Virus record (IMG/VR): IMGVR_UViG_3300022750_000015
Coordinates: 1 to 56,972 of that record
Reading direction: 5' to 3' (one strand)
Source of the DNA: a virus
Lineage: Duplodnaviria; Caudoviricetes
Length of the DNA stretch: 56,972 bases
Part shown: positions 5,265-56,260 of the stretch, piece after piece
Position numbering within the stretch: position 1 is the stretch's first letter
How the letters are laid out: the number at the start of each line of letters is the position of its first letter
Made by a program: the position numbers and the translations under genes
The notes under the pieces: model-generated
Database searches by the model: none
Told to the model about the DNA's origin: nothing
The model's input: only the letters and a program-made list of their open reading frames with translations

Positions 5265-7637
5265 ATGCAGCTAAACATTGCTACCGGTAAAGTATATAAA
5301 AGCCGTGAAACCAAAACGTGGAAGAACGTTACCATATCCTGGAAGGACTTAGTTAAAAAGCTATCGGTTACCATCCGAACGAACGAAAGCTATAAGCAGT
5401 ACTGCGCCTTCACGAAAGAGCAACAATCCGATATCAAGGACAAAGGCTCTTTCGTGGGTGGGTACCTGTTAGACGGCAAACGCTCACCGTCCACAGTAGA
5501 GTTCCGGCAACTGCTTACACTCGATATGGACTTAGCCTCGATCGATTTCTGGGACGAGTTCTGCATGTTCTACGGCTGCGAGGCCGTACTGCATAGCACA
5601 CATAAGCACTCTTCTAAAACACCGAGATACCGGTTAGTTATACCGCTTGACAGGACAGTAAACAGTACCGAATATCAGGCCATCTCCCGCAAGGTAGCAG
5701 CCGGATTAGGTATCAACCTGTTCGACCCGACTACCTGCCAACCGGAGCGCCTGATGTACTGGCCTACCAGTTCTAAAGACGGAGAGTTCGTATTCGAACA
5801 CCAAACGGGTAAACTGCTATCGGCTGATGCCATACTGGCGAAGTACCACGACTGGACTAACATCAGCGAATGGCCGATGTTCGAGGTCGAAAAGGACTTC
5901 ATGAAGCTGGGAGGTAAGCTACAGGGCGCACCGGCAGACAAGCCGGGACTCATAGGGGCGTTTAACCGGGCGTACTCCATCAGCGCGGCCATAGAAGCGT
6001 TCCTGAGCGACGTATACGAGCCGACGGCCAGCGAGGACAGATACACATACGTAGGCGGCTCGGGGGCATCAGGCGCTATAGTTTACGGACAGGACGAGTT
6101 CCTATACTCCCACCACGGCACTGACCCGATACACGGTAAGCTGGTTAACTCTTACGACCTGGTGCGTTTACATCTCTACGGGGGGCAGGACGGGGACGAG
6201 CGCGAACTGAGTAAGCAGAAGAGTAATAAGCTGATGGCTGATTTCGCCGCAGAGGACCCTAACGTAAGGGCCGAAGCCGGTAGCCGTAGGTTAGCATCAG
6301 ACGATTTCGACGTACTCGAAGAGACCGAATGGCTGAAAACCTTAAAGGTAGATAAGTTCGGTATGTACGAGGCTACGATACCTAACTTCTATACGATCAT
6401 CAGCAACGACCCCAATCTAAAGGGCAGATTAAAATACAACCTGTTTAGTCACCGGGCTATCGGTGTATTACCGTTACCCTGGAAGGATGGAACGGGCGAA
6501 ATAGAGCTGGCCGATCACGATAGCGCAGGATTGCGGATGTACCTCGAGAAGCGGTACCACATCCACCATATCGGTAAATTCGCCGACGGGGTGATGCGCG
6601 TGTTACACGATAACGCCTTTCACCCGATCAAGGAATACATAGACGGCATTACCTGGGACGGTAAATCGAGGCTGGATACCATGTACATAGATTACCTTGG
6701 GGCAGATGACAATAAGCTGAACCGGGAGATCACCCGCAAGGCTTTCGTGGCTGCAGTAGCCAGGGTGTACGTGCCCGGCATCAAATTCGATTACGTGTTG
6801 ACCTCCGTAGGACCCGAAGGTATAGGCAAAAGTACCATACTTGACCTCTTGGGTAAAGACTGGTTCTCAGATAGTTTTATGGGCGTAACGGGTAAAGAGG
6901 CGTTCGAGCAGCTGCAAGGTTCGTGGATCATCGAGATAGCGGAGCTGTCCGGCTTCAAGAAAAGCGAAGTGGAAGCAGTAAAGCATTTCATATCCAAAAG
7001 AGTAGACCGGTTCCGCGTAGCCTTCGGGCATATACCGGAGAGCTTCGCCAGGCAGTGCGCGTTCTTCGGCACCACCAATGAGTACGGTTTCCTTAAAGGC
7101 GCTACTGGTAACCGCCGGTTCTGGCCTATCGTCGTAACCGGCGTTACTTTCTACGACCTGAAGGAGTTGCCGGTAGATCAGATATGGGCCGAAGCCAAAT
7201 ACTATTTTGATCAGGGCGAGAGACTGTATCTCGACGCGGATTTCGAGCAAGAGGCAAGAGAGCTGCAAGCCGACCACACCGAGACAGACGACCGATCAGG
7301 ACCTATAACCGAATACCTGAATACCCTACTACCTATCGACTGGCCAACCATGGACGCATTCGAGCGACGCAGCTATTTAGGAGATCCGGCTATGATCGAA
7401 GAAAAGGGCGAAGTACAGCGGAAAACTGTATGTGTGCCTGAGCTATGGGTAGAGTTGTTTAAGGCGGAGTTAAAGGATATGGGGCCGCATAATACTAAAT
7501 ACATACATCAGATCATGGCCACAATACCAGGTTGGGAGAGGTCAGAAAGTAATTTAACGTTCCCGATATACGGTAAGCAAAGGGCTTATCTGTTAAGCGG
7601 TACAATTGTTAAGAAGAGAAAGGCGAAGAGGGTATGA
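5265..7637 (+). CDS. Primase-helicase, virulence-associated E (VapE/VirE) family
   Basis: N-terminal primase motifs (LTLDMD, HSTHKH, PRYRL); C-terminal SF3 helicase GPEGIGKST, WIIEIAEL, GTTN, TGNRRFWP. Confidence 0.92.
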   Translation: MQLNIATGKVYKSRETKTWKNVTISWKDLVKKLSVTIRTNESYKQYCAFTKEQQSDIKDKGSFVGGYLLDGKRSPSTVEFRQLLTLDMDLASIDFWDEFCMFYGCEAVLHSTHKHSSKTPRYRLVIPLDRTVNSTEYQAISRKVAAGLGINLFDPTTCQPERLMYWPTSSKDGEFVFEHQTGKLLSADAILAKYHDWTNISEWPMFEVEKDFMKLGGKLQGAPADKPGLIGAFNRAYSISAAIEAFLSDVYEPTASEDRYTYVGGSGASGAIVYGQDEFLYSHHGTDPIHGKLVNSYDLVRLHLYGGQDGDERELSKQKSNKLMADFAAEDPNVRAEAGSRRLASDDFDVLEETEWLKTLKVDKFGMYEATIPNFYTIISNDPNLKGRLKYNLFSHRAIGVLPLPWKDGTGEIELADHDSAGLRMYLEKRYHIHHIGKFADGVMRVLHDNAFHPIKEYIDGITWDGKSRLDTMYIDYLGADDNKLNREITRKAFVAAVARVYVPGIKFDYVLTSVGPEGIGKSTILDLLGKDWFSDSFMGVTGKEAFEQLQGSWIIEIAELSGFKKSEVEAVKHFISKRVDRFRVAFGHIPESFARQCAFFGTTNEYGFLKGATGNRRFWPIVVTGVTFYDLKELPVDQIWAEAKYYFDQGERLYLDADFEQEARELQADHTETDDRSGPITEYLNTLLPIDWPTMDAFERRSYLGDPAMIEEKGEVQRKTVCVPELWVELFKAELKDMGPHNTKYIHQIMATIPGWERSESNLTFPIYGKQRAYLLSGTIVKKRKAKRV

Positions 7638-8419
7638 GGGATTTATTGAATACTATCCATACAGCCGATTGCAATTTGTTTATGAGCGATCTGCCCGAAG
7701 CCTGTATCGATCTTACCGTTACTTCACCGCCTTATGATAAATTAAGAGTTTATAACGGTTTCTCCTTCGACGTAGATTTAGTAATTAAGAACCTTTACCG
7801 GATAACTAAAAAAGGCGGTATAGTAGTTTGGGTTGTTTCTGATCAAACGGTTAAAGGCTCTGAATCGGGTACCTCTTTCCGAACCGCTTTAAAGTTTATG
7901 GAGATTGGTTTCAATTTACATGACACTATGATATACGCAAAGAAAAATTTTATACCTCAAACCCATAACAGATATGAGCAAGAGTTCGAGTATATGTTTG
8001 TGTTTAGCAAAGGTAAGCCAAACACTTTTAGCCCTTTAAAAGTACCAGCTAAAACCGCAGGACAGACAATGAAATTAGGTCAAAAAGGCTACGGGTTTAA
8101 AGAGGGGTCTTTTAGAAGAAGGCATGAAGAGATTACTACAGGTGAAAATAAAACGCCAGGCAATATATTTTATTACGCTTGTGGTTCAAGTGGCAAAAAC
8201 CACCCGGCTGTTTTCCCCGCAGCTTTGGCGGCGGATCACATTAAAACGTGGACTAATCCTCTTGATATAGTATTCGACCCGTTCAGCGGAAGCGGAACGA
8301 CTTGCGAAGAGGCTAAAAGATTAAGCCGGTGGCATTTAGGATGCGATATCAGCGCACAGTACGTTAAAGAAAGTAACGAATCTTTAGCTAATATAGACTC
8401 CATATTCGATATCCTATGA
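7634..8419 (+). CDS. DNA amino-methyltransferase (N4-cytosine/N6-adenine family, beta class)
   Basis: TSPPY catalytic motif, HPAVFP, DPFSGSGTT SAM-binding motif. Confidence 0.92.
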   Translation: MRDLLNTIHTADCNLFMSDLPEACIDLTVTSPPYDKLRVYNGFSFDVDLVIKNLYRITKKGGIVVWVVSDQTVKGSESGTSFRTALKFMEIGFNLHDTMIYAKKNFIPQTHNRYEQEFEYMFVFSKGKPNTFSPLKVPAKTAGQTMKLGQKGYGFKEGSFRRRHEEITTGENKTPGNIFYYACGSSGKNHPAVFPAALAADHIKTWTNPLDIVFDPFSGSGTTCEEAKRLSRWHLGCDISAQYVKESNESLANIDSIFDIL

Positions 8420-8694
8420 GAGAATCCTTCATAGAAGCCAAACTCCGTAAAGCCATACAGGCTCTCGGCGGTATCTGTATTAAGTTCACCTCCCCCGGCA
8501 GCATGGACGGTGTACCAGACCGGATCATCCTGTTACCCGGCGGTAGAATATACTTTGTAGAAACTAAATCGCCTGCGGGCAAGCTTTCGGCCATTCAGCG
8601 ATTCGTTCATAAGACGTTCGCTAAGCTGGGGTTCCCCGTGCGCGTAATCGGTACTTTGGAAGAGTTGGCAGCATTTATAAATGAGATAAAATAA
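8416..8694 (+). CDS. VRR-NUC domain nuclease
   Basis: E..IE...GVPDRI...FVETK..GKLS..Q pattern; canonical position before SNF2. Confidence 0.9.
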   Translation: MRESFIEAKLRKAIQALGGICIKFTSPGSMDGVPDRIILLPGGRIYFVETKSPAGKLSAIQRFVHKTFAKLGFPVRVIGTLEELAAFINEIK

Positions 8695-9980
8695 TGAACG
8701 TCCTATCCCTATTTGATGGAATGTCGGGAGGCCGAATAGCCCTCGAACGCGCCGGTATTCCCGTTACTAACTACTTCGCCTCCGAGATAGATAAGCATGC
8801 TATCAAAGTTTCGAAAGCCAATTGGCCGGATATCAAATATATCGGTTCGGTCGTATACGTTGATATATCGTACGACGCGGCTACCGATACCTCCCGCATA
8901 TATAACTGGTTAACGGGAGAGGACTTTACTTTTAAAGGTAGGATCGATCTGATTATCGGCGGTTCGCCATGCCAGGGCTTTAGTTTCGCAGGTAAGCAAC
9001 TGAATTTTAACGACCCAAGAAGTAAACTGTTCTTTGAGTTCGTCAGGTTGAAAAAGCAGACGGGGGCTACTTGGTTCTTTTTGGAGAATGTGAAAATGGC
9101 TAAGGCTTCGGAAGAGGTTATATCGGAGTATATGGGGGTACAACCTATCAGGCTAAACAGTGCTTTAGTTAGCGCGCAAACTCGTAAACGCCTATATTGG
9201 ACTAACATACCCTACTTCGGGCCTCCTGAGGATAGGGGGATATTTCTAAAAGATATACTACTTACGGATATTGACCCTAAATACATATTATCTCAAGAAG
9301 CTGTAGACTACATGTGCAGAGAGGTAAAAGGAGGCCGAAACCATTGGGATTTTCACCACCACCACGATTCTGCTAATGAAAAAAGCAGTTGCATAACCGC
9401 TGCTATATCTAAAGGAGTTCCATATAACGTACTTATAGATAGAAATCCTACATTACGGGTTAGAGAAGCTACGAAAATCGGATACTGCGAAGTAAAACCC
9501 GGAGAATGTTTCGACAATACGTTGCCGAGCAGTAAAACCCGAAGAGGTAGATATATGGGCGATAAAGCCAATTGTTTAACAGCTACTAATTTTCAATATT
9601 ATCAATACTTAGGCAAAGTCGCGTCTACTTTTGAGAGAATGACCGCTCGTGAATTTGGTATAAATATAAATGAAAGCGGAGATTTCAGACCCCATAAGCT
9701 CGATGGTAGAAAAAGCGGAATCAGTGAAATAGGAACACTTCGAAACGAGAATAATAAAGGACTTACGTTAATATCTTCGCACGTACCGGTAGTATACACT
9801 GAAAACCCATTTTTAATACGTCGACTAACAGAAATTGAATGTGAGCGATTGCAAAATGTACCCGATGATTACACTATAGAGGCTTCTGGGACTCAAAGAT
9901 ATCGTATGCTCGGTAACGGTTGGGAGTGTAACACAATTACCTATCTGTTTAAACCTCTGCAAATAGCCGATATCCTATGA
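8694..9980 (+). CDS. DNA cytosine-5 methyltransferase
   Basis: LSLFDG, GGSPCQ, ENV, Q.RKRLYW, RRLT..ECERLQ, GNGW motifs. Confidence 0.93.
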   Translation: MNVLSLFDGMSGGRIALERAGIPVTNYFASEIDKHAIKVSKANWPDIKYIGSVVYVDISYDAATDTSRIYNWLTGEDFTFKGRIDLIIGGSPCQGFSFAGKQLNFNDPRSKLFFEFVRLKKQTGATWFFLENVKMAKASEEVISEYMGVQPIRLNSALVSAQTRKRLYWTNIPYFGPPEDRGIFLKDILLTDIDPKYILSQEAVDYMCREVKGGRNHWDFHHHHDSANEKSSCITAAISKGVPYNVLIDRNPTLRVREATKIGYCEVKPGECFDNTLPSSKTRRGRYMGDKANCLTATNFQYYQYLGKVASTFERMTAREFGININESGDFRPHKLDGRKSGISEIGTLRNENNKGLTLISSHVPVVYTENPFLIRRLTEIECERLQNVPDDYTIEASGTQRYRMLGNGWECNTITYLFKPLQIADIL

Positions 9981-11314
9981 AGTTCACTCCCCTCCGACAT
10001 CAGCAAATCGCATTAGACTTCTCATTAACCCGGCAAACGTCCGGGCTTTTTTTGGATATGGGCCTCGGTAAAACAGTCACCACCCTTTCACTGCTTAACA
10101 TCCTGATCAACAGCTTCTCGGTAGATAAACCCCTGATCATAGGCCCTAAGTTCGTAGCCGAAGATACCTGGCCGAAGGAGATAGCCAAATGGGATCACAC
10201 TAAACATATCACGTATGCCGTTATCACCGGTTCGGTACAGGAGCGTTTAGCCGCGCTCCGGGCTAAGGTAGATGTACACATACTGAACATCGAGCATTTA
10301 GCCTGGCTGGTAGACCTCAAACGGTTTAAGACCCGATGGCCGTTCGATATGCTGGTCGTGGACGAACTGAGTAAATTCAAATCGTCTGACAGCATACGGT
10401 TCAGGAAACTAAGAAAAGTACTACCTCAGGTACCCCGCTTGATCGGCCTTACCGGTACACCTATACCCAACGGCATGCTTGACCTCTGGGCGCAGGTATT
10501 CATTCTGGACCGGGGCAAACGCCTGTTTCCTACCGTGACCACATACCGTATGCACTACTTCCATCCGGAGAAAAAGCTGATACACGGCGGATGCACGTAC
10601 GGCATTAATCCGGGAGCCGAAGAGCTGATCTACGAAAAGATAGATGACTTATGCCTCAGCATGAAAGCGGTAGACTGGCTGCAGTTACCCGAACGGCAGG
10701 ATATCATACGGGAGATTGAATTACCCGACTTATCGGAGTATAAGCAGTTCAAGCGCGATAAAATACTGGAACTGGCCGAAGGTGATATAACCGCGTTCAA
10801 TGCGCCGGCGCTGTATAACAAGCTGCTGCAATACGCTAACGGGGCGGTGTACGATTCGGATAAGAAGTATCACGTTGTACACGACCTGAAGCTGGAAGCA
10901 CTGGCCGAAGCAGTAGAAGAGTTGCAAGGCAAACCTGTTATTATCGCGTATCAGTTCCAGTCCGACGTGGATAGGATCAAAAAGCGGATACCACAAGCTG
11001 TACAGCTAAAGAAGAACAGCCAGATCACCGAGTGGAATAAAGGCAAGATACCCGTTATGCTTGGGCATGCGGCCGGTATAGGCCACGGGCTAAACCTGCA
11101 ATACGGCGGACACTACATATTCTGGTACGGCGTAAGCGCTAACATGGGCGACTATTGGCAACTCGTTAAACGCCTGGACAGGCAGGGGCAGAAATTCACC
11201 GTATTTAATTATCACTTTTTGGTAAAGGGTACGGCGGAACACAGTGTGTACCGGTCAATACAGAGCAAGACTTTAACGCAGGACAGGCTGATGGATGCTT
11301 TGCGGAAATATTAA
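9977..11314 (+). CDS. SNF2-family (SF2) helicase
   Basis: DMGLGKT, DELS, LTGTP, GHGLNLQ, RLDRQGQ motifs. Confidence 0.92.
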   Translation: MKFTPLRHQQIALDFSLTRQTSGLFLDMGLGKTVTTLSLLNILINSFSVDKPLIIGPKFVAEDTWPKEIAKWDHTKHITYAVITGSVQERLAALRAKVDVHILNIEHLAWLVDLKRFKTRWPFDMLVVDELSKFKSSDSIRFRKLRKVLPQVPRLIGLTGTPIPNGMLDLWAQVFILDRGKRLFPTVTTYRMHYFHPEKKLIHGGCTYGINPGAEELIYEKIDDLCLSMKAVDWLQLPERQDIIREIELPDLSEYKQFKRDKILELAEGDITAFNAPALYNKLLQYANGAVYDSDKKYHVVHDLKLEALAEAVEELQGKPVIIAYQFQSDVDRIKKRIPQAVQLKKNSQITEWNKGKIPVMLGHAAGIGHGLNLQYGGHYIFWYGVSANMGDYWQLVKRLDRQGQKFTVFNYHFLVKGTAEHSVYRSIQSKTLTQDRLMDALRKY

Positions 11315-12054
11315 AGTATATCGCTTAATAAGCGATTTATGATTCGCTTATTAGCTTTACCGTACATTTCTTTATCTTTTTCTATCAGTATGTAATTACG
11401 GTTTGTATTTAAGCAAGCTATACCAACGGTACCAGAACCGCTACAATTGTCTAAAACAGTCATACCTTCATCCGTATAGGTTTTTATGAAATACTCTTCT
11501 AAAGCAACAGGTTTTTGCGTAGGGTGTACAGCACCGCTTTGTTTATCCGATTTCATTTTAATAACCGAACGTGGGTATCTTTCGTCCGAATCGTAATCGG
11601 CTAAACCATGTTCTCCGTAATTAGTAGTCTTTTTACAATTTATTTTGTGTTTGGCTAAACTAACTTTCCTTTCGTGACCTTGCGTCTTTTGCGGATTATA
11701 AACAGGTTTACCTTTATAAAAAACTAATATCTGCTCATGCGCCCGCATAGGCATCTTCTTTGCGTTCAAGTGACCAGAAGCGGATGTTTTTTCCCAAATC
11801 CAATCATATCTATACACATCGGGGTTACTCATAATTAGTTTCGCAGCAAATAAGCCTACGGCGTTCAGCAGGATTACGCCGTTAGGAGATATAATACGTT
11901 CGTATTGCTCCCACAAAGGTCCGAAAGGGATTATAACATCCCATTTATTACGAGTAGTACCGTAAGGTAAATCCGCTTTTATTAAATGCACAGAATTTGA
12001 GGGTATATCGGTCATTACTTCTAAGCAATCCCCGTGAATGTGTCTATTTAGCAT
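11311..12054 (-). CDS. DNA adenine (N6)/amino-methyltransferase, beta class
   Basis: DLPY, HPTQKP, LDNCSGSGT motifs. Confidence 0.9.
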   Translation of the reverse strand: MLNRHIHGDCLEVMTDIPSNSVHLIKADLPYGTTRNKWDVIIPFGPLWEQYERIISPNGVILLNAVGLFAAKLIMSNPDVYRYDWIWEKTSASGHLNAKKMPMRAHEQILVFYKGKPVYNPQKTQGHERKVSLAKHKINCKKTTNYGEHGLADYDSDERYPRSVIKMKSDKQSGAVHPTQKPVALEEYFIKTYTDEGMTVLDNCSGSGTVGIACLNTNRNYILIEKDKEMYGKANKRIINRLLSDIL

Positions 12055-21745: not shown

Positions 21746-22024
21746 TTAAAGTGCTTCTTTAATCTTGTCTTGGGCGTTCTCAGCCTTCAGGTTGGTATCC
21801 GCCGTAGTAATAACCTTGGCAGGCTCAAAAGCGAAGTTCTTTAACAGATAGGCTACTCCGCCGGCAATAGAAGCCATGGCTATAGCCGTCCAGTTAAACT
21901 TCAATTGCCCGGCTTCAACTGTCTGTTGGATAATAACCAACGCCGGTGTTAACACGGCCATTAATAACGCCCGAAGCCAGTCGGCCCCTTGCAGCGTAAA
22001 CTTTTTCGATAATCTTACTTGCAT
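21746..22024 (-). CDS. Putative holin
   Basis: 92 aa, 2 TM, charged C-tail, adjacent to the endolysin. Confidence 0.65.
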   Translation of the reverse strand: MQVRLSKKFTLQGADWLRALLMAVLTPALVIIQQTVEAGQLKFNWTAIAMASIAGGVAYLLKNFAFEPAKVITTADTNLKAENAQDKIKEAL

Positions 22025-22029
22025 ATATT

Positions 22030-22743
22030 TTAGTTTAAATACTTATTACTAACCCAGCCTATCAGCTTACCGAACTCGATCTTACTCCACGACCCGTTAC
22101 GTTCCAGTTCTACTACATCGGCTCCGGCCGGTAGTGTACGGATTAAAGTAAATTCGGTACCGGCTCCTGAGCGCAAATTAAGCCCTGTGACAGTCTTAAA
22201 GGCTTTAGGCGATACAGAACCTATCTGCAGGTACGAAGTCCCTGGGATAAACTTCTTTTCGGCCTTTATAGCTTTAAGCTGAGACACTGATAGACCGAAA
22301 GTCTTTTGGAAATGCGGTTTGTCGACTATCGACGACCAGTCGCCGCCCCACTGCCAGCCGTGCGCCTTGAATATGGCCACAACCTCCGTCCAATCGGCTA
22401 TACGATCGTTATCATAATCGGTAACGTCATTCCAGGATGCGGTCTTACCGTCTATGATCAGGGCGAAGTCTAAAGCTAAGCCATAATTATGCAAAGAGTC
22501 TCCGGCTTTAGCGTTGGTAACCTTATAGCCCATCGGGCGTTGTTTACTTACGCCATCCGGGTTCTTAACTGTACGCCCTGAAGCATACAAGTCGTTCTGT
22601 TCTTTATCGGTACGAAGTGTATAAGTGTATCTCACCTTAGCGCGGCCGGTGAGGGCCTGATCACATAAGGCGAGAATGTCAAGGGCTTCGGTTCGAAGCT
22701 TAGGGTGTAGCAGTGCTACGCGTTTGGTTGATAGGGCGTCCAT
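22030..22743 (-). CDS. Endolysin: M15 family (L-Ala-D-Glu-type) peptidase plus C-terminal SH3b domain
   Basis: RT..EQ..LY, SLHNYGLALD, WGGDW..D.PHFQ; LNLRSGAG...GWVS. Confidence 0.9.
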   Translation of the reverse strand: MDALSTKRVALLHPKLRTEALDILALCDQALTGRAKVRYTYTLRTDKEQNDLYASGRTVKNPDGVSKQRPMGYKVTNAKAGDSLHNYGLALDFALIIDGKTASWNDVTDYDNDRIADWTEVVAIFKAHGWQWGGDWSSIVDKPHFQKTFGLSVSQLKAIKAEKKFIPGTSYLQIGSVSPKAFKTVTGLNLRSGAGTEFTLIRTLPAGADVVELERNGSWSKIEFGKLIGWVSNKYLN

Positions 22744-24656: not shown

Positions 24657-25426
24657 ACTGTCGTAGTTATAGCGTAGTTAATAGTAGGGTCGAAATCTCC
24701 TGCGGCCATGGCGTTTGCCTGCGCCCTCGTGAGGTTAATTTGCTTAGGCCGTAATGTCAGTTCGTCAAAAACACCATTACTCGACACGGGGTTATTGCTA
24801 CCGTCTGTAGGGACTGCGTCTATGGTTACTGATGCGCTACCTTGAGCCTTAACGAAAGCGGTTGTGGCAATTTTAGTACTATCATCATCAGTTGAAGGCG
24901 TTGGCGCAGTTGGGGTGCCAGTAAATTCGGGGGAATTAAGTAGAGCGTACCCGCTTAAATCTTGGTCGCCGGTATTTACCCCGGACTGATTGTCTAATTT
25001 ATTTTTATCAGTTGAAGTAAACTGTTTTGCAGTTGTTCCAGATGGAATATCATCCTGGGTTAATGATACATCACCACCTACAGGATCAATGCCATTAACC
25101 GATTCCACGGTACCGCTACCGTCTCCTCCCTGTGCGGCTTCCCCGATACCTAATAAATCAAAGTAAGATATCAATTCGGATAATATCACGTTGGGCGAAA
25201 TTATATCGCCATTTCCATTAACGAACATATCCACATTAATATCCAAAAGCTCAGGTACCTGTATACCATAACTCCTAATTGAGATAAGGTCGTCCGATCT
25301 GAACTGAGTTGATAGATTTGTGATTTTATACCCCCAGCTTCCAGGCTGTTCGGTTAATGAGAATTCATCACCTTTACTAAAGGTAATTTTCGAGTTGGAT
25401 AAAACAACTTTAATTGGATTAATCAT
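24653..25426 (-). CDS. Tail fibre-like protein
   Basis: SVNG..G.V.L, SPEFTGTPTAPT...TKIATTAFV, D..PTDGSNNPVSS fibre motifs. Confidence 0.75.
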   Translation of the reverse strand: MINPIKVVLSNSKITFSKGDEFSLTEQPGSWGYKITNLSTQFRSDDLISIRSYGIQVPELLDINVDMFVNGNGDIISPNVILSELISYFDLLGIGEAAQGGDGSGTVESVNGIDPVGGDVSLTQDDIPSGTTAKQFTSTDKNKLDNQSGVNTGDQDLSGYALLNSPEFTGTPTAPTPSTDDDSTKIATTAFVKAQGSASVTIDAVPTDGSNNPVSSNGVFDELTLRPKQINLTRAQANAMAAGDFDPTINYAITTTV

Positions 25427-25452
25427 GCTTTGGTCAAATTTTATTAACCAAA

Positions 25453-25482
25453 AATAGCTAAAATGTGATTATTTTAGCTATT
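25453..25482. repeat. 12-bp inverted repeat (operator or hairpin)
   Basis: AATAGCTAAAAT-gtgatt-ATTTTAGCTATT. Confidence 0.7.
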
Positions 25483-25508
25483 GTAACGTATTTTTAACAG
25501 AATGGTAA

Positions 25509-25880
25509 TTAACCGACTGTATCCTTAAACACCTCTGGTACTTTCTTATAAGTCACAGACCATGTAAGGAACATTACCAGTACATACGTAACCAAATGGT
25601 TTAGCCGATCCCAAGTTGTAAGAATATACAGGCTATCTGGTATTTGCATATGATACTCGAAATATGCCTTAAATCTCACCCAAAACGCCGGAATCTCCGA
25701 CAGTGCGGCCGACGAATAGTACATTACTATTATGATTTGTACCCACCACTCGTTAGATTTATGCTCGAGACGCCGAAGGTATCTAATGTGAAATACAGCC
25801 CAGCACGGCAGCATTAGAACCATTATTATGTTTATTAAAGTTATAATATACTGATTAGTATTAGTTGTTAACTGATCCAT
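25509..25880 (-). CDS. Membrane protein (~3 TM)
   Basis: Hydrophobic segments in 123 aa. Confidence 0.7.
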   Translation of the reverse strand: MDQLTTNTNQYIITLINIIMVLMLPCWAVFHIRYLRRLEHKSNEWWVQIIIVMYYSSAALSEIPAFWVRFKAYFEYHMQIPDSLYILTTWDRLNHLVTYVLVMFLTWSVTYKKVPEVFKDTVG

Positions 25881-26214
25881 TGCCTTTAATGTTTGTTAGA
25901 TATGTACCTCCGGTAATCCCACCATACCACAATGTCGCTAATAGCATGCCAGCATTTACTATAGAGTATAATTGTATTGAATAATCATAAAACTGGAAAT
26001 CCAATGCTGTCTTTGCATATGGAAGTTGTAAGAAAATAAAAGCGCCGGTATAGCCCGCAGCTTTTACTCTCGCCGATATTTTATTACTTTTTGGCTGGGC
26101 GTTACCTTCTCTCATTCTAATCGTGTTATCTATATACTTCCAAAGGACAATAATTACACCGACGACAAAAATAGTAATTTTAGCAAGTGCGAACCATTGC
26201 TCTTGGCAGCCCAT
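25861..26214 (-). CDS. Membrane protein (2-3 TM)
   Basis: Hydrophobic segments in 117 aa. Confidence 0.7.
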   Translation of the reverse strand: MGCQEQWFALAKITIFVVGVIIVLWKYIDNTIRMREGNAQPKSNKISARVKAAGYTGAFIFLQLPYAKTALDFQFYDYSIQLYSIVNAGMLLATLWYGGITGGTYLTNIKGNGSVNN

Positions 26215-26220
26215 AATTTT

Positions 26221-26589
26221 TTATGTGTTTTTAAATAACCCGTTTCTCCAAGCGCTTACAAACAACGAAATACAGATAATTACCCACAGGCAATTATAGA
26301 CAACTATTTGTAAAATCGGTTCATTAATAACCCCGTGGTGGGTTAAAATTATTAATAAAAAATTACATATTACACATATAATAGTAAATCTACCAACCAT
26401 TTCGCGCAACCAGGTTGAATAGCCGTGCCAACTATCTACAGTGTAGTACAATAGAATCGAAGCTGTAGTATATGAATACCACAGCTTCTTAATTTCCGGC
26501 AGATAGTCCGGGTTCGGCAAATTTAATACGTAAGTATTAAAAGAAACCAAATAAGCCAGTAAAGCCAATATTGAAAACGCTAATCTCAT
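26221..26589 (-). CDS. Membrane protein (~4 TM)
   Basis: Hydrophobic segments in 122 aa; ATGA overlap with the peptide gene. Confidence 0.7.
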   Translation of the reverse strand: MRLAFSILALLAYLVSFNTYVLNLPNPDYLPEIKKLWYSYTTASILLYYTVDSWHGYSTWLREMVGRFTIICVICNFLLIILTHHGVINEPILQIVVYNCLWVIICISLFVSAWRNGLFKNT

Positions 26590-26768
26590 GGATGGCCACC
26601 AATATCAAGAACACATTTTTGCAATGTTTCACTCCAATAGTAACCCGTTTCACAATCGTGATCTCTACGGGCGTCTGAGCCGGAATTAATCAAACCGATT
26701 AACTCAAAGCCCTCGATTACCTTGTCTTTTCCGAATTTTTCGACTAATTTTTCAATGATTTTTTCCAT
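26586..26768 (-). CDS. 60-aa peptide with amphipathic N-terminus and C-x12-C loop
   Basis: MEKIIEKLVEKFG...RRDHDCETGYYWSETLQKCVLDIGGHP. Confidence 0.7.
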   Translation of the reverse strand: MEKIIEKLVEKFGKDKVIEGFELIGLINSGSDARRDHDCETGYYWSETLQKCVLDIGGHP

Positions 26769-26911
26769 TTGGTCAAAGTGTTTTTATTTTCCCGAATATA
26801 CGTATTTGAAAAGAAACAGAAAACCAGAATAAAGGTCACAACCAAGAATATTTCTATTTTAATAATAGCTACTCCCCATAGTGTTTTTATTTCTGATTCT
26901 GTTGGTTTCAT
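26744..26911 (-). CDS. Small single-TM protein (55 aa)
   Basis: ATG at 26911 overlaps the upstream stop (TAATG). Confidence 0.45.
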   Translation of the reverse strand: MKPTESEIKTLWGVAIIKIEIFLVVTFILVFCFFSNTYIRENKNTLTKWKKSLKN

Positions 26912-27504
26912 TAGAATGCATCCCTGTAGAGCCAAAAATTAGTTAATGAACTGGTTCCCAAACCGACACCAGTAAACTGCAAAGATACACTCAATGTGTT
27001 GTCTGTAGAACCGGTAGCCGCGAACGCTCCGACAGGCGTTGCGGAAGCGGTAGTTAAGTTAATAAGCGTTCCGTTAGGCTGTCTTATTTCAGCAAAGGGT
27101 ATCTGAGTATTCATGCCGGTAGCAATCATATAAAACTCAACCGTGAACAACTGGTTTGCAGCGCCGCCTGTGAGAGGCGTACTGCTTAATAGGTTGAACG
27201 TTTGACCCCCATATTGAAATGTTATCGAAAGCCCCGGTATACTAATAAGAGGGGTTGTAAGTCTAAAGGTCATATACAACCTATACCAACGGGTAGGAAT
27301 AAAAGTATTGGCGGGGATAACCTCGCTATAGAAAACAGTTGAGGGGCTTGATTGCGTAATCGTGGTTCCAGGCGACATAGATATTATGCCGCCCATTGGT
27401 GTAACAATCTTGTTTGATTGCCCCTGAGCCTTGCCGATATTCCCGTGGGATATTTGCCAGAATAAAAACAACAACGAAATGGTGTAGAATAATATTCGCT
27501 TCAT
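26911..27504 (-). CDS. Beta-rich protein with signal peptide
   Basis: MKRILFYTISLLFLFWQISHG N-terminus. Confidence 0.7.
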   Translation of the reverse strand: MKRILFYTISLLFLFWQISHGNIGKAQGQSNKIVTPMGGIISMSPGTTITQSSPSTVFYSEVIPANTFIPTRWYRLYMTFRLTTPLISIPGLSITFQYGGQTFNLLSSTPLTGGAANQLFTVEFYMIATGMNTQIPFAEIRQPNGTLINLTTASATPVGAFAATGSTDNTLSVSLQFTGVGLGTSSLTNFWLYRDAF

Positions 27505-27505
27505 T

Positions 27506-30500
27506 TTAGTAAACTGTTATTGTGCCGTTAAGCGGTTGTAGATAATATGAGTTAGTTCCGGTTGGAATAAGTTGAACCTTTTGACCTTGTGTAAGAGTTG
27601 CTCCGCCTGTACCCGCAGTTGTAGCGAAAGTAGTACCGCTTTGCATAGAATAACCGGATGGTACAACTATTTTAGCGCCGCCTGTGCCTGTTACAAGTAT
27701 GGTGATAATCTTAGTGCCATCAGATGTAAAACCATTACATGGGGGCAAAGTAAGGTTATACTGCGTAGCGGATGTATTTATATAATCCCCGTTCAATAGC
27801 ATGGTTGCATTAGCGGAAACGTTATAAGGCGTACGGTACATCGGGTCGTTCCCCTTAACCAAAGTATACCGAGTACCATCACAATAAAACATTGCACTAT
27901 TAAGGACATTGTACGTTGTCGAAGTTGTTTTTGTGTTTGGATCCCAAATATTGCCCCCTGACGAAATACTTACTTGAATGGTATTTGCGCTTGCATCTGT
28001 TTTAACAACCGTAAAGTAACTACCCCTGCTTAACTCCGAGTCGAACCCATCGGTTAATGCCGGCAATGAAAACGGGATATTACCAGATGTACAATCGTAC
28101 TGTACTATCCTATCGTATACGGTTGCACTATAACTTGCTGTTTTTGGCGTTGAGTTTACGCGTAGCTGGTTAACTTGCCTGAACCCTGCTAATGTATCGG
28201 TGTTTTGCGTAAGTGTTTTTTGGTATATGCTATTACTGTTTGGGCTGGTAGTTCTCAACTGAACACCGCCCAAGCCTGTATTCCCGTTTCTAACCTGCGC
28301 GTATGCTCCGAATAAACCACCAGAGCCTATTATGTTTATTCCATTGATATTTCCGCTTACGTTTAACGTCCCCGTTATTGTTTGAGGATTAACCTTATTA
28401 AGCTTGTCGTAGTAATAGCTTGTTAAAGCCAGGGTGTCGTTCGCGTTACCGTTTACAGGTAGTACATATGCGCGTGTTCCGGTTGTAAAAGTGCTTGGTA
28501 CTCTAAGGCTTACCGTTCCGGTTGCATTACTATCTACCCTTAACGTCCATGCACCGCTGGTTGTAACGGCGTTTCTTATCTCTACTGAACTGGTGAAAAA
28601 AGCAGGAGCTTTCCATCTTTTAGACCCAGTAACATCTTGGCTCGTTGTACGAGTTACCGCATCCCCCGCGGTGGTGGTATAAGTCCTATTTGCTGAAAGG
28701 TCTTGAGTTACACCATCAATAGTAATTGTTCTTGTAGGCGGAACACCAGAACCCGAAACTTCACTTGAATAGGCAAACTTTTGTATGCTAGTTCCGGTTG
28801 AATAACTTAGTCTATTATCAGCAACGTCAATAAAAAGCGAACCTAAATTATTTGCCGTTGCCGTTATGGCCGATTGCGGTTTAAACTGCAAGGGTGGTAG
28901 GGTGGAGCCGTTTGGATCAATTAAAAACATGGAATTATTATTAATTGACTTATTGCCGTCCATGTAGTTAGTGCCATGATACCTCAATAGCATATTACCG
29001 TTAATGTCTATTTGCCAAGGGTAGTAACCATTAATCTTGGCGTTAATATACTGCCCGCTTAATGAAACCTGACTTTGAGGAGAACCAAGTTCTACAATAT
29101 TAGATTCTGCATAGCTAATCCCATCAATGCTTTTGACAACAGGCACAGTAACAACAGAGCCGGCCGTGGCTGATGGAACCCTACCGCTGTTATCGACCGT
29201 GTTGCCTGCGCTATTAAACAAGTTTAATGTTACATTATTACCCGATAAGTCCCCCCTTGTGCTTCCGCTGGATTCGTCCAACTCATACCTTACAACTAAA
29301 TTTCCAGTATATGGCGGGTTGGTTCCTAATCCACTATTATAGTTAACCGCTACATTGGCAGCTGAAATATTTGCATTGCCGAATTTAACCTGGTCGAAGC
29401 TACCGCTACAATATAAACCCGGTGTTAAATCCCTTCCTATAAAAAAGCCAGCGCCGTTTCCAATATCTAAAGTTGCTGTTTGAGTTGCTTTAGCAACACC
29501 GTCTAAATAGGTACGTATTATAGTGCCGTCATATGTTACGTCAATATGGTGCCATTGTTGATCTGTTACAATATCGCCTGCTATATTTACAGTAACGTTC
29601 CCGCCTACACTATTTATTGCTCCAAACCTGGCGTTGCCACCTACAATTGATATACCTGCGGATTTAGCCACCGATCCCCATTTAACCATAACACCCTGAG
29701 TGCCTGAACCTGTATACCTATACCAGTAATCCACATAAAACGGTGACGCCCCTGATGGGAACAATGCATCGGAGGCGCTCGCATATTGTGTAGAGGACGC
29801 AAGCAAATTCAATGCGCGGCCTGCATTCCCAGCTGGTTTATTGCCATTGAATATGGTGAAGTTATTCAGTAACGCATCTAACTGCATGCCCCCTGAACCG
29901 CCTGTAGTGGTTAGGCTGAGTTTAGGTAGTGTTTTACTTATGGTCTGATCTGCTGTAAAGATATTAGGCAGTTCCCATCCCGCTACCGTATACGAAGCAT
30001 CTACGAAGTTGTAAACCCGGTCGGCTGTTAAAGCGGGGCTACCAAGTGTCCGCGTAAACCCCAACGGCGATTTCCATGAAAACCGACCTGTAGCATCAGC
30101 GAATAGGTTAAAGCCGCCTGTAGGCGTTGCTGGCATCGTGCTTTGCGACGGGAAGAATGAATAACCGTTGCCGCCTGTACCGGTAATATTAAACCCTTGC
30201 GCCAACAATCGGCCCGTATAGCTATTGCCGCGTGCGGCGACTACTTGTAGGTTTTCGTTGGCCAAATTAGCAGTAATGGCGCTATCAATTTGAGCCTGTG
30301 TTTTGCCTGAAGCAACGACGTCCCATCCTAAAGTAGTAGCATTCCACTCATAGTATACTTTAGGCGTTTTCACACTTGCATAGGTAAGGTTTCGCATATT
30401 AGCAGCTCCGTACCTGGTCACAAAACTGTCTCGGGCCGCTGTAGTTGAAAACGTAAGAAAACCTCCGTTCAACTCCTGGGCATTAGCTACAAAATTACTA

Positions 30501-30598
30501 CCGCTGGCGCTATGCAACCGGCCGTCAGCCCCGCCTACTTGTTGGGCGCTAACCGAGCCGGATATAAGGATAAGAAGATATATTATAAATTTTTTCAT
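27506..30598 (-). CDS. Large tail-fibre-like protein with signal peptide and LamG/ConA-like domain
   Basis: MKKFIIYLLILISGSVSA|QQ; WHHIDVTYDG...YLDG LamG motif; VPPTRTITIDG..DLSANRT fibre motif. Confidence 0.75.
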   Translation of the reverse strand: MKKFIIYLLILISGSVSAQQVGGADGRLHSASGSNFVANAQELNGGFLTFSTTAARDSFVTRYGAANMRNLTYASVKTPKVYYEWNATTLGWDVVASGKTQAQIDSAITANLANENLQVVAARGNSYTGRLLAQGFNITGTGGNGYSFFPSQSTMPATPTGGFNLFADATGRFSWKSPLGFTRTLGSPALTADRVYNFVDASYTVAGWELPNIFTADQTISKTLPKLSLTTTGGSGGMQLDALLNNFTIFNGNKPAGNAGRALNLLASSTQYASASDALFPSGASPFYVDYWYRYTGSGTQGVMVKWGSVAKSAGISIVGGNARFGAINSVGGNVTVNIAGDIVTDQQWHHIDVTYDGTIIRTYLDGVAKATQTATLDIGNGAGFFIGRDLTPGLYCSGSFDQVKFGNANISAANVAVNYNSGLGTNPPYTGNLVVRYELDESSGSTRGDLSGNNVTLNLFNSAGNTVDNSGRVPSATAGSVVTVPVVKSIDGISYAESNIVELGSPQSQVSLSGQYINAKINGYYPWQIDINGNMLLRYHGTNYMDGNKSINNNSMFLIDPNGSTLPPLQFKPQSAITATANNLGSLFIDVADNRLSYSTGTSIQKFAYSSEVSGSGVPPTRTITIDGVTQDLSANRTYTTTAGDAVTRTTSQDVTGSKRWKAPAFFTSSVEIRNAVTTSGAWTLRVDSNATGTVSLRVPSTFTTGTRAYVLPVNGNANDTLALTSYYYDKLNKVNPQTITGTLNVSGNINGINIIGSGGLFGAYAQVRNGNTGLGGVQLRTTSPNSNSIYQKTLTQNTDTLAGFRQVNQLRVNSTPKTASYSATVYDRIVQYDCTSGNIPFSLPALTDGFDSELSRGSYFTVVKTDASANTIQVSISSGGNIWDPNTKTTSTTYNVLNSAMFYCDGTRYTLVKGNDPMYRTPYNVSANATMLLNGDYINTSATQYNLTLPPCNGFTSDGTKIITILVTGTGGAKIVVPSGYSMQSGTTFATTAGTGGATLTQGQKVQLIPTGTNSYYLQPLNGTITVY

Positions 30599-30601
30599 AT
30601 T

Positions 30602-31522
30602 CTAATTAGTAATTACTGCTGAGGTGCTTATTGATCCGAAAGGGTTTTTACTCACTGAAATATAGTAAGTTTGCGATCCTCCTACAGTGTTTATGAATAC
30701 TCTACTTATGTTTAAATTAAACGCGGCATTCTGCGGAAAACCGTTAATATTTATGTTGTTAATAGGAGAAGTAGTCGCAACGAACATATATCTGTCGGAA
30801 GGCTGTTGAGCCAGTGTAGTCGTTATAAGTATATTGGCTCCGTTATTATCTTTAAATTGCGCTGCTATTATATTCGCGTCGGTCGGAGTTCCATCTCCTT
30901 GAAGAGCGCTTGTGGCAAAACCTGCATACCTGCGATCATAAAAGCTGAAAGACGTAGTAGGTGCTATAGATTTACCGTCAGTGGTTACAACTGTATTGGT
31001 GAATGTACTCGTCGTGTTACGTGGTACGTTAACCGATTGACTGCCCGAGATGGTACCGGGAGCCGCTGGCTGCGCGCCGAATATAGGGTATGTTTGAGAA
31101 GCTCCGGTAATTACCGCGCTTGCTATAGTGTTGGTCGTGGCCGCGCGCCCGTAAGTCCAGTTCAAACTATAGCTTAAGTTAGCTCCTGTAGGTAGCCTTT
31201 CCTGCGAAACGCCCCCGGTTAGAGTAGCTGTTGGTGGTGTAGTTTGGTAAAAGACAGCCTGTATCCATTGACCCGGTGAAATATTAGTACCGGGATTAAA
31301 ACCAACCGTAGGCAACGTGCTTATAGGACCTGCGGGTATGATTTCTGCGGCCGATGACAAACTATCACTGAGGTTAAATATCTGCGTCGCATCCCACAAT
31401 ATGCGGAGCTGCTTATCGCCGCTGACCGTACGGGTTTGTATGGTAGCCGTCTTACTTTGCCAAGTCTGCCCGTGGGCGACCGCAACAAAACAACATAAAA
31501 GTATAAATACTATTTTCTTCAT
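30602..31522 (-). CDS. Beta-rich protein with signal peptide
   Basis: MKKIVFILLCCFVAVAHG|QT; Thr/Ser-rich. Confidence 0.7.
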   Translation of the reverse strand: MKKIVFILLCCFVAVAHGQTWQSKTATIQTRTVSGDKQLRILWDATQIFNLSDSLSSAAEIIPAGPISTLPTVGFNPGTNISPGQWIQAVFYQTTPPTATLTGGVSQERLPTGANLSYSLNWTYGRAATTNTIASAVITGASQTYPIFGAQPAAPGTISGSQSVNVPRNTTSTFTNTVVTTDGKSIAPTTSFSFYDRRYAGFATSALQGDGTPTDANIIAAQFKDNNGANILITTTLAQQPSDRYMFVATTSPINNININGFPQNAAFNLNISRVFINTVGGSQTYYISVSKNPFGSISTSAVITN

Positions 31523-56044: not shown

Positions 56045-56260
56045 ATGAAAACAATATTAACCATTATCAGCATAGCCATAGTATTACTATGCTCAGGCAA
56101 CGCAAACGCCGTTACCATACAATCTCAAGGCCGCGTTATTAAACTAACAGCCACACACGTTAAAACGCTTAATCAGTGCGGTATCATATTACCAGCCGGC
56201 GTTCAAACTATCCGCAATAACGATTTAGCAGATCGTATTATATTAATCCTTAACAAGTAA
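56045..56260 (+). CDS. Small exported protein
   Basis: Signal peptide MKTILTIISIAIVLLCSGNANA. Confidence 0.65.
   Translation: MKTILTIISIAIVLLCSGNANAVTIQSQGRVIKLTATHVKTLNQCGIILPAGVQTIRNNDLADRIILILNK

Follow-up and report, generated by a model that had tools for sequence, protein, structure and literature searches.

A coupled gene pair encoding a two-cysteine hairpin protein and a four-helix membrane protein, from the tail-fibre region of a lytic-looking phage

The cassette and its transcriptional context

The DNA analysed here, positions 1 to 56,972 of IMG/VR virus record IMGVR_UViG_3300022750_000015 (56,972 nucleotides; hereafter the window), is an approximately 57-kb phage genome, that of a lytic-looking myovirus. 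Its tail-fibre module carries a cassette of five tightly packed minus-strand genes, named here by the length of their products: a 55-amino-acid (aa) protein with one transmembrane (TM) segment, a 60-aa protein with a C-x12-C motif, and membrane proteins of 122, 117 and 123 aa. Only two of these genes, g60, which encodes a two-cysteine hairpin protein, and g122, which encodes a four-helix (4-TM) membrane protein, were universal across loci; they were present together in 14 of 14 distinct contigs examined, which represent a group of uncultured phages from soil. The features of the cassette were as follows.

26744..26911, minus strand: g55, 55 aa, one TM segment; the ATG overlaps the stop codon of the preceding 197-aa gene (TAATG), and 25 nt at the 3' end are shared with g60
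26586..26768, minus strand: g60, 60 aa; N-terminal amphipathic helical part, variable linker and C-terminal two-Cys hairpin, without a signal peptide
26598..26654, minus strand: hairpin of g60 (codons 39-57), C-x2-G-Y-Y-W-x6-C-V-L-D-I-G
26221..26589, minus strand: g122, 122-aa four-helix membrane protein; its start overlaps the g60 stop as ATGA
25861..26214, minus strand: g117, 117-aa membrane protein
25509..25880, minus strand: g123, 123-aa membrane protein with three long helices
25453..25482, minus strand: terminator-like hairpin, a perfect 12-bp repeat (25453-25464 / 25471-25482) with a 6-nt loop, then a U-run
25449..25456, minus strand: promoter-like motif TATTTTTG, which fits TAnnTTTG, about 22 nt before the tail-fibre ATG at 25426

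A first-pass annotation of this stretch had described a 60-aa open reading frame (ORF) with an amphipathic leader, a dibasic RR and a two-cysteine core, followed by three polytopic membrane-protein genes and an inverted repeat. Each of these elements was recovered where it had been placed: the N-terminus of the 60-aa ORF, the RR at residues 34-35, C39-x12-C52, the downstream genes, the ATGA overlap at the g60/g122 junction and the 12-bp repeat, which was perfect. The fifth gene, g55, lies inside the same range and had not been described.

From a 306-aa gene further upstream through g123, neighbouring genes overlapped or sat no more than 6 nt apart. TAnnTTTG is the Bacteroidetes -7 promoter consensus. 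In none of the 14 loci did it occur in the 200 nt that precede the peptide gene, and it was present before the tail-fibre gene and before the endolysin gene. The 89-nt intergenic RNA that follows g123 gave a folding z of -5.3, and the terminator-like hairpin would mark the end of the cassette transcription unit. The intergenic stretch 25427-25508, which holds both this hairpin and the promoter-like motif, was 92-100% identical in relatives despite strongly diverged flanks; it may be a conserved regulatory joint and recombination anchor. The sequence runs listed for the cassette were four DNA runs labelled leaf litter metagenome, one of them possibly its source, with no RNA run among them.

The GC content was 0.36-0.37 in 25001-27000 compared with 0.43-0.47 in the flanks, as the earlier remark that the block is AT-richer had suggested. 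By codon position, GC1/2/3 of the cassette was 0.376/0.334/0.369, compared with 0.497/0.408/0.466 in 29 other genes. The low GC content was partly a matter of amino-acid composition (GC1 and GC2) and partly of GC3 (0.369 compared with 0.466 ± 0.067 in the 29 genes).

Conservation, structure and selection

The pair was recovered by several independent routes. A profile search with g122 (HMMER) gave 66 proteins at E<=1e-3, ten of them at E<=1e-10; nearly all were about 120 aa long and were matched end to end. The ten relatives that were looked up were all metagenomic, with uninformative names, and some lay on contigs of 54-72 kb. Five viral loci on contigs of 58-73 kb, four of them with terminal repeats, were reached through the 4-TM family (12-sequence sub-alignment), and a hairpin ORF stood directly upstream of the 4-TM gene in all five. 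A DNA-pattern scan for the hairpin in metagenome contigs returned six stretches; three were peptide loci, each with a 4-TM gene downstream, and the other three were unrelated Cys-rich large ORFs. The same scan of viral contigs returned six stretches, five peptide loci and one large repeat protein. Four of these loci showed the 4-TM gene downstream, and the fifth was the contig of locus L011, where that gene was already known. A looser pattern gave only loci already known. Locus L035 was reached independently through the g123 family, and it carried a hairpin ORF, a 4-TM gene and homologues of g117 and g123 in that order. The start/stop overlap was ATGA in 11 of the 14 loci; the exceptions were L011 (a GTGA overlap, by eye), L003 (a 22-nt overlap) and L023 (start 2 nt past the stop).

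Both core families were absent from Pfam, PHROGs, NCBIfam, PADLOC, PDB and the isolate phage records searched. There was no match in blastn of the cassette against 50,697 phage records, in tblastn of proteins P0010 and P0088 against phage records or in a first metagenome scan with the peptide alignment, and tblastn of g123 against phage records gave only two chance matches (E 0.8). A word-based search of 5.8 billion proteins returned one other protein for g122 and two for g60, close relatives only. The pattern scan found nothing in bacterial genome contigs. No described counterpart of the pair turned up in the literature search, which is not proof that none is in print. The proposal of an undescribed module of a peptide and a membrane protein was thus upheld for the pair. 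The association of the peptide with the TM genes held for the 4-TM gene and failed for the other two, which were confined to the window's clade.

The product of the first gene of the pair was 41-76 aa long across loci and was predicted to be soluble. In an alignment of 13 homologues, 22-78% identical to the g60 protein of the window, C39, G42, C52 and G57 were invariant, and Y43, Y44, W45, V53 and D55 were each found in at least 90% of the sequences. The hairpin of the family reads C-x2-G-Y-Y-W-x4-6-C-V-x-D-x-G; it is preceded by a Pro-rich linker and followed by 0-4 residues to the protein end. The N-terminal part, a helix-Gly-helix segment in most homologues, was swapped in 4 of the 14 loci for a segment that was Lys/Pro-rich (L011, L013 and L023) or Trp-rich (L035). 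The first-pass annotation had compared the peptide to an Agr-like leader and core; that comparison did not survive, since the supposed leader is the part that is variable or replaced and the supposed core is near-invariant among proteins that share only 22-36% identity overall, which would be the opposite of a specificity-bearing signal peptide. Nor did the RR hold up as a processing site: it was seen only in the window sequence and was missing from at least two of the three close relatives and from the distant homologues. There was no GG before the hairpin in the g60 alignment, and no lipoprotein signal (a hydrophobic N-terminus, then Cys) was seen by inspection in any of the 14 hairpin proteins. 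An H-C-C-H zinc site was considered and rejected; His37 and His59 were absent from L003 and from all distant homologues.

Sequence matches of g60 to known proteins were all below significance. CBM_14 matched at E 0.0084 and 16.7 bits, under the 22.1-bit cut-off, and the PDB sequence matches were to two one-disulfide peptides, Stress-response Peptide-1 (E 0.12) and scarabaecin (E 0.16). The hairpin motif was also found inside large proteins of Chitinophagaceae/Bacteroidetes metagenome-assembled genomes (MAGs; loci L025, L026, L027 and L029), for which there was no Pfam family. The two of these proteins that were translated (L026 4851-7019, minus strand, and L029 317-2404, minus strand) were about 690-720 aa long, with a lipoprotein-like N-terminus and an HExxH motif, both noted by inspection. 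In the MAG proteins a Pro-rich linker follows the hairpin, and tandem hairpins were present in L026 and L027. On a Verrucomicrobium MAG contig (L030 2-178, plus strand) the motif ended a larger, 5'-truncated ORF, and small TM genes came after this ORF. It may be that fibre-like proteins carry the motif at their C-terminus as well.

The AlphaFold model of g122 was a four-helix bundle (pLDDT, the predicted local distance difference test score, 91.6) with helices at residues 2-22, 31-54, 60-84 and 91-115. The count of Lys and Arg residues favoured an N-in/C-in topology in 60 of 61 sequences of the family, and g122 is therefore modelled as an inner-membrane protein with both termini in the cytoplasm. 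There was no match among PDB sequences, and no significant fold match was obtained: the best Foldseek E was 0.55, and the best VIA-align Z was 10.6, where noise for helical bundles is about 13. The top VIA-align match, to the TM domains of pentameric channels, was within the tool's stated noise. Scans of 61 family members gave three Pfam families, each matched by a single member (E 0.0016-0.0099), and two PHROGs families, again each matched by a single member. The alignment had no invariant column. A DsbB/VKOR-like protein was rejected, as the C-x2-C of helix 3 was lost in L003 and no Cys column reached 70% in the 61-sequence alignment. By these searches the g122 family is undescribed. A complex prediction with the g122 and g60 families scored 0.01, which was no answer, and no conclusion was drawn from it.

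The four-gene form (g60, g122, g117 and g123) was confined to the window's clade, which comprises the window, L001, L003, L005 and L035. The protein encoded by g55, which has only about 20 residues past its TM segment, was near-identical in L001 and L005 and had a 39-aa, 1-TM counterpart in L003; none was seen in L035. The g117 protein, with homologues in L001, L005, L003 and L035, had one clear N-terminal TM segment by hydropathy and two weaker hydrophobic stretches seen by eye, and the ESM Atlas returned nothing for it. The g123 family comprised 22 proteins at E<=0.01, including the window's own entry, and its invariant polar residues (21 aligned sequences) were H31, E62, P64, R69 and W90-D91-R92. 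The AlphaFold model of g123 showed three long helices (pLDDT 90.7), for which there was no fold or family match (best Foldseek E 1.9; one PDB sequence match, E 0.73). EpsG, which was sub-threshold in 4 of 21 relatives, was treated as noise. The cassette proteins gave nothing meaningful in NCBIfam or PADLOC.

In the clade of L010 to L014 other small proteins came after the pair instead: one combines a TM segment with a charged helix, one is a coiled-coil protein with an N-terminal TM segment, and one has three TM segments. Homology of g117 or g123 to these small TM proteins was rejected (hhalign probability <1%). Bitopic proteins with a TM segment and a charged helix, of the kind that follows the pair in this clade, have an architecture seen in lysis proteins. 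At L011 5723-6217 (plus strand) an inserted HNH endonuclease gene (HNH_3, E 8.5e-05, just short of the Pfam cut-off) interrupts the cassette's run of genes for small membrane proteins.

One explanation for these data is that the hairpin is an exported peptide. It would cross the inner membrane without a signal, through an oligomer of the 4-TM protein or at holin triggering, become oxidised, and act outside the cytoplasm as a signal or effector. The invariant Cys pair, within a motif shared with the exported-looking, lipoprotein-like HExxH proteins of Chitinophagaceae MAGs, is consistent with this proposal, as are the sub-threshold likeness to disulfide modules (CBM_14 and the PDB peptides) and the strict coupling to a small polytopic membrane protein; a variable N-terminus and a Pro-rich linker would fit a propeptide. 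In L018 a stand-alone CheY-like receiver (7737-8156, plus strand; Response_reg E 1.4e-14, from a scan of L018) is encoded two genes after the 4-TM gene, where other phages carry small membrane proteins, and L020 has a near-identical copy; in this one lineage an exported-peptide module may be wired to the receiver. The ESM Atlas gave a language-model lead from g123 to HisKA_7TM, the histidine-kinase 7TM region, with a score of 0.88 that lay under the tool's bar of 0.9.

The export proposal is nevertheless rather improbable. The hairpin protein has neither a signal peptide nor a conserved cleavage site, the RR included, and its putative mature part is invariant and not diversified. In agreement with the first-pass annotation, which had seen no recognisable peptidase or kinase, neither these nor an ABC (ATP-binding cassette) transporter was found in Pfam, PHROGs and NCBIfam scans of the window or flanks. 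A lytic phage would have no lysogeny switch to regulate, the channel-like match of the 4-TM protein (Z 10.6) falls within helical-bundle noise, and the receiver gene is present in one lineage only. We also doubt the more specific form of the proposal, in which the exported, oxidised hairpin would act as a signal or effector on a conserved envelope target of Chitinophagaceae-type hosts, mimicking the hairpins of the hosts' HExxH lipoproteins. If hairpin export were true, leaderless peptides would have a previously undescribed way out of the cell and the hairpin would be a new effector between phage and host or between phages, in effect a new self-contained peptide-export and effector module of lytic phages.

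Selection on the cassette was estimated from three close relatives that share both the genes and their order: the 53.5-kb viral contig L001, L005 and the more distant L003. Between the window and L001, the synonymous divergence (dS) of g60, g122 and g117 was 1.0-1.8, near saturation, and the ratio of nonsynonymous to synonymous divergence (dN/dS) was 0.10-0.11; for g60 it was 0.107 at a dS of 1.0. The dN/dS was 0.21 for g123 (L001 compared with L003) and 0.34 for g55 (to L003). Judged by these values, the cassette genes are real and under purifying selection. All are short and lie in an AT-rich stretch, as would be expected of chance ORFs or mis-called genes without function. That explanation was refuted by the selection and conservation data and is vanishingly improbable: dN/dS was about 0.1-0.2 with saturated synonymous sites, the ORFs recurred in 14 contigs with products 22-78% identical, relatives numbered 66 for the 4-TM protein and 22 for g123, and the AlphaFold models were confident.

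Neighbouring genes and the role of the pair

The minus strand of the genome encodes the terminase, portal, protease, major head protein, sheath, tube, tape measure and baseplate genes. On the plus-strand side are a primase-helicase, a DNA polymerase, an exonuclease, a single-stranded-DNA-binding protein and several methyltransferases, with three DNA methyltransferase genes in the replication region (7634-8419, 8694-9980 and 11311-12054). There were no transfer RNA genes in the window (ARAGORN), and PHROGs and Pfam scans of window ORFs gave no match to an integrase or repressor among those scanned, which gives the phage a strictly lytic appearance. Since its tail sheath was closest to those of Flavobacterium columnare phages (57.7% identical, for example to FCV-1, the best of 128 matching records), the host is probably a member of the Bacteroidota. 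There was no counterpart of the cassette region in FCV-1. A 71-aa ORF at 56045-56260 (plus strand), with a signal-peptide-like N-terminus and a Cys near its end, could be a small lipoprotein; its neighbour is an anti-restriction-like gene and the lysis genes are far off.

The cassette lies on the minus strand within the tail-fibre module. Three genes with Sec-signal-like N-termini follow the baseplate genes, and past the 197-aa gene the order is the cassette, a 257-aa tail-fibre gene, a 622-aa protein, the endolysin and a 92-aa protein.

30602..31522, minus strand: 306-aa gene, Sec-signal-like N-terminus
27506..30598, minus strand: 1030-aa gene, Sec-signal-like N-terminus and Laminin_G_3 domain
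26911..27504, minus strand: 197-aa gene, Sec-signal-like N-terminus
22030..22743, minus strand: endolysin, Peptidase_M15_4 and SH3_3
21746..22024: 92-aa, 2-TM holin-like protein, two hydrophobic segments

A comparable setting was seen elsewhere. In L010 to L014 and L018 the pair adjoined signal-peptide-like proteins, some with K1-lyase_C, GDSL, Beta_helix or He_PIG domains; the exception was L011, where the gene immediately upstream of the pair looks membrane-anchored. In L020 a signal-peptide-like protein lay downstream of the pair. Sec-signal-like distal-tail proteins recur across the phage group (L010 100-4377, 4379-4741 and 6239-8314; L012; L013; L014; L018; L020). Exported tailspike-like proteins are unexpected for a myovirus, and the secretion signals on these flanking proteins raise a separate question, namely how and whether such proteins reach the virion.

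These neighbours suggest that the cassette could be a helper that anchors, matures or hands over the exported tailspike-like proteins whose genes flank it on either side or assists fibre assembly, or that the hairpin protein could itself be a minor fibre or virion component. The window cassette is chained by overlaps to the three Sec-signal-like genes, the pair adjoins such proteins in the loci just named, some with tailspike-type domains, and the cassette co-varies with the fibre genes; the larger ORF that ends in the motif ahead of small TM genes in L030 points the same way. We consider a helper role improbable, however. L035 has the four genes with no signal-peptide proteins beside them, the 4-TM family has no conserved Cys pair and so is not DsbB/VKOR-like, and we know of no precedent for membrane-protein-assisted fibre assembly.

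Comparison of the window with L001 revealed sharp changes in DNA identity. Identity was 93-100% across the 1030-aa gene end, the 197-aa gene and g55, fell to 58-88% between the g60 start and the g123 end, was 92% in the intergenic hairpin region, and was about 30% where the fibre gene begins. L001 and L005 differed at two places only, one comprising g60 with roughly the first 60% of g122 and the other the distal fibre genes. For a contig from run X2, good agreement with the window was confined to the part upstream of 26460 and to the intergenic stretch; in the latter there were no differences. Because identity drops at the g60 start and L001 and L005 differ only in swapped blocks, the cassette is, on these comparisons, an exchangeable unit with a boundary at the g55/g60 junction, and g60 can apparently be swapped together with the 5' part of g122.

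This mosaicism is relevant to another explanation, superinfection exclusion or an entry block tied to the host-range cassette, in which an inner-membrane complex would keep phages that have the same fibre from delivering their DNA or using the receptor. The cassette stands directly beside tail-fibre or tailspike genes in 14 of 14 loci, it is AT-richer than the core genes and so accessory-like, and its mosaic boundaries are sharp in the window/L001, L001/L005 and run X2 comparisons. There is also a precedent from within a tail operon, HK97 gp15, a small inner-membrane protein that blocks genome injection (PMC3594210). On the other side, the cassette has no promoter-like motif of its own and is coupled to late structural genes, its phage appears to be strictly lytic, and a near-invariant hairpin would be odd for a function that tracks variable receptors. 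Furthermore, 301 genomes of one Chitinophagaceae-type family, a candidate host family, contained no copy beyond three marginal partial matches inside larger ORFs; a prophage-expressed function is therefore not indicated. No cassette match to exclusion proteins (Imm/Sp, Llp/Cor or gp15) was found in PHROGs or PADLOC. Taken together, we regard exclusion as unlikely.

The lysis genes are separate from the cassette, as the first-pass annotation had stated. An endolysin recognised by Pfam lay 1.9-5.5 kb downstream of the pair, on the same strand, in six loci (the window, L010, L013, L014, L018 and L020); the endolysin candidate of L012 had no Pfam match. The gene that directly follows the endolysin encodes a homologue of the 92-aa protein in L013 (50% identity) and L018 (61% identity), and no spanin pair was found beside the window endolysin. 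The phages appear to own a canonical endolysin and holin-like pair distinct from the cassette. Because this separate endolysin and 2-TM holin-like gene exist, the hairpin/4-TM pair would not be the primary holin; nor, at 1.9-5.5 kb from the endolysin in those six loci, does it show the endolysin adjacency by which holins are recognised. No holin family in Pfam or PHROGs matched g55, g122, g117 or g123, and the diversity of holins leaves a holin-like action possible. The match to ordinary holin or antiholin families that the first-pass annotation had named as grounds for dropping its proposal was not found, nor was one to any other family.

The reading that we favour, tentatively and with low confidence, is that the pair forms a late-made inner-membrane complex that is accessory to lysis or egress. 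The hairpin protein would dock on the 4-TM protein to give a two-subunit complex, probably expressed late with the tail genes, whose target would be the host envelope as infection ends; it would most likely be an accessory regulator of lysis or egress, and neither a primary holin nor a diffusible signal. We infer the physical complex, its late timing and its lysis-related role from the start/stop coupling, the lack of a promoter-like motif of its own, the terminator-like hairpin, the low dN/dS, the predicted topology and the distance to the endolysin, and by analogy with two known systems. As far as the available parts of the two accounts go, P2 LysA is the product of a separate antiholin gene in a late operon, with four predicted TM domains (PMC3091744), and the T4 holin T is controlled by periplasmic RI, which has conserved disulfide Cys residues, and by cytoplasmic RIII (PMC11413866).

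Several observations weigh against an accessory lysis complex. A conserved 2-TM holin-like gene already adjoins the endolysin in the window, L013 and L018, and tailspike or fibre genes, a terminator and a promoter-like motif separate the pair from it. Antiholins described so far mostly sit next to the holin that they control. The hairpin is similar to one-disulfide modules found in exported proteins, and the main puzzle is that cytoplasmic docking without a signal peptide would leave the invariant Cys residues unexplained. The invariant polar residues of g123, which lie within its helices or close to them, look more like a binding or catalytic site than a hole-former. In addition, the cassette diverges and recombines with host-range genes, which would suit exclusion or a fibre-linked role equally well.

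Comparison with known systems

Phage genomes have a large blind spot in the small membrane proteins encoded where tail and lysis genes meet, and to our knowledge almost nothing is known of lysis or exclusion in Bacteroidota phages. The pair is a defined, testable unit within that blind spot: two coupled genes, a conserved 19-residue hairpin, a confidently modelled four-helix partner and natural variants. If lysis tuning were true, it would be a new type of holin accessory.

In common with AgrD/AgrB, the pair combines a small precursor-like protein, with an amphipathic N-terminus and a Cys-bearing C-terminus, with a small polytopic membrane protein. In contrast to that system, neither the cassette proteins nor the 61 members of the 4-TM family matched AgrB or AgrD in Pfam, and the 4-TM family, with no invariant column, has no catalytic His/Cys pair. 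The Cys-bearing part of the phage protein is invariant and not hypervariable, no histidine kinase was found in the window or flanks, the peptide gene comes first, and the host would be a Gram-negative-type member of the Bacteroidota by phage kinship. The pair also differed from double-glycine bacteriocins and other ribosomally synthesised and post-translationally modified peptides, since there was no GG leader and neither a C39-peptidase ABC exporter nor a modifying enzyme in the window or flanks. With regard to the arbitrium system AimP/AimR, there was no signal peptide, and no tetratricopeptide-repeat receptor, integrase or repressor among the proteins scanned.

The Rz/Rz1 spanins are similar in that small genes overlap, one product is Pro-rich with a Cys and the other is membrane-anchored, and the role would be late envelope disruption. 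Unlike the spanins, the hairpin protein has no lipoprotein signal, its partner has four TM segments and no periplasmic coiled coil, and the gene order is reversed. The hairpin itself, C-x2-G-aromatic ... C, weakly resembles one-disulfide modules of extracellular proteins, namely the chitin-binding CBM_14 type and peptides of the C-terminal sub-domain of epidermal growth factor (EGF)-like modules, with all matches below significance; in contrast to these modules, the phage protein is without a signal peptide and carries a single hairpin.

HK97 gp15 is also a small inner-membrane protein within a tail gene region, AT-rich and accessory-like (PMC3594210). The difference is that gp15 is a moron with its own promoter and terminator and is prophage-expressed, whereas no promoter motif was found for the cassette, its phage looks lytic, and the unit includes a soluble hairpin partner. 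P2 LysA and T4 RI and RIII are small late accessory proteins that tune a holin; LysA has four TM domains and the others are soluble, one of them with disulfide Cys residues (PMC3091744, PMC11413866). No sequence or fold relation to these proteins was found, the phage pair lies 1.9-5.5 kb from the endolysin, and the hairpin protein, unlike RI, lacks a signal peptide. Cassettes of small membrane proteins close to tail and lysis genes are known as a general kind; what is new here is the coupled hairpin/4-TM design.

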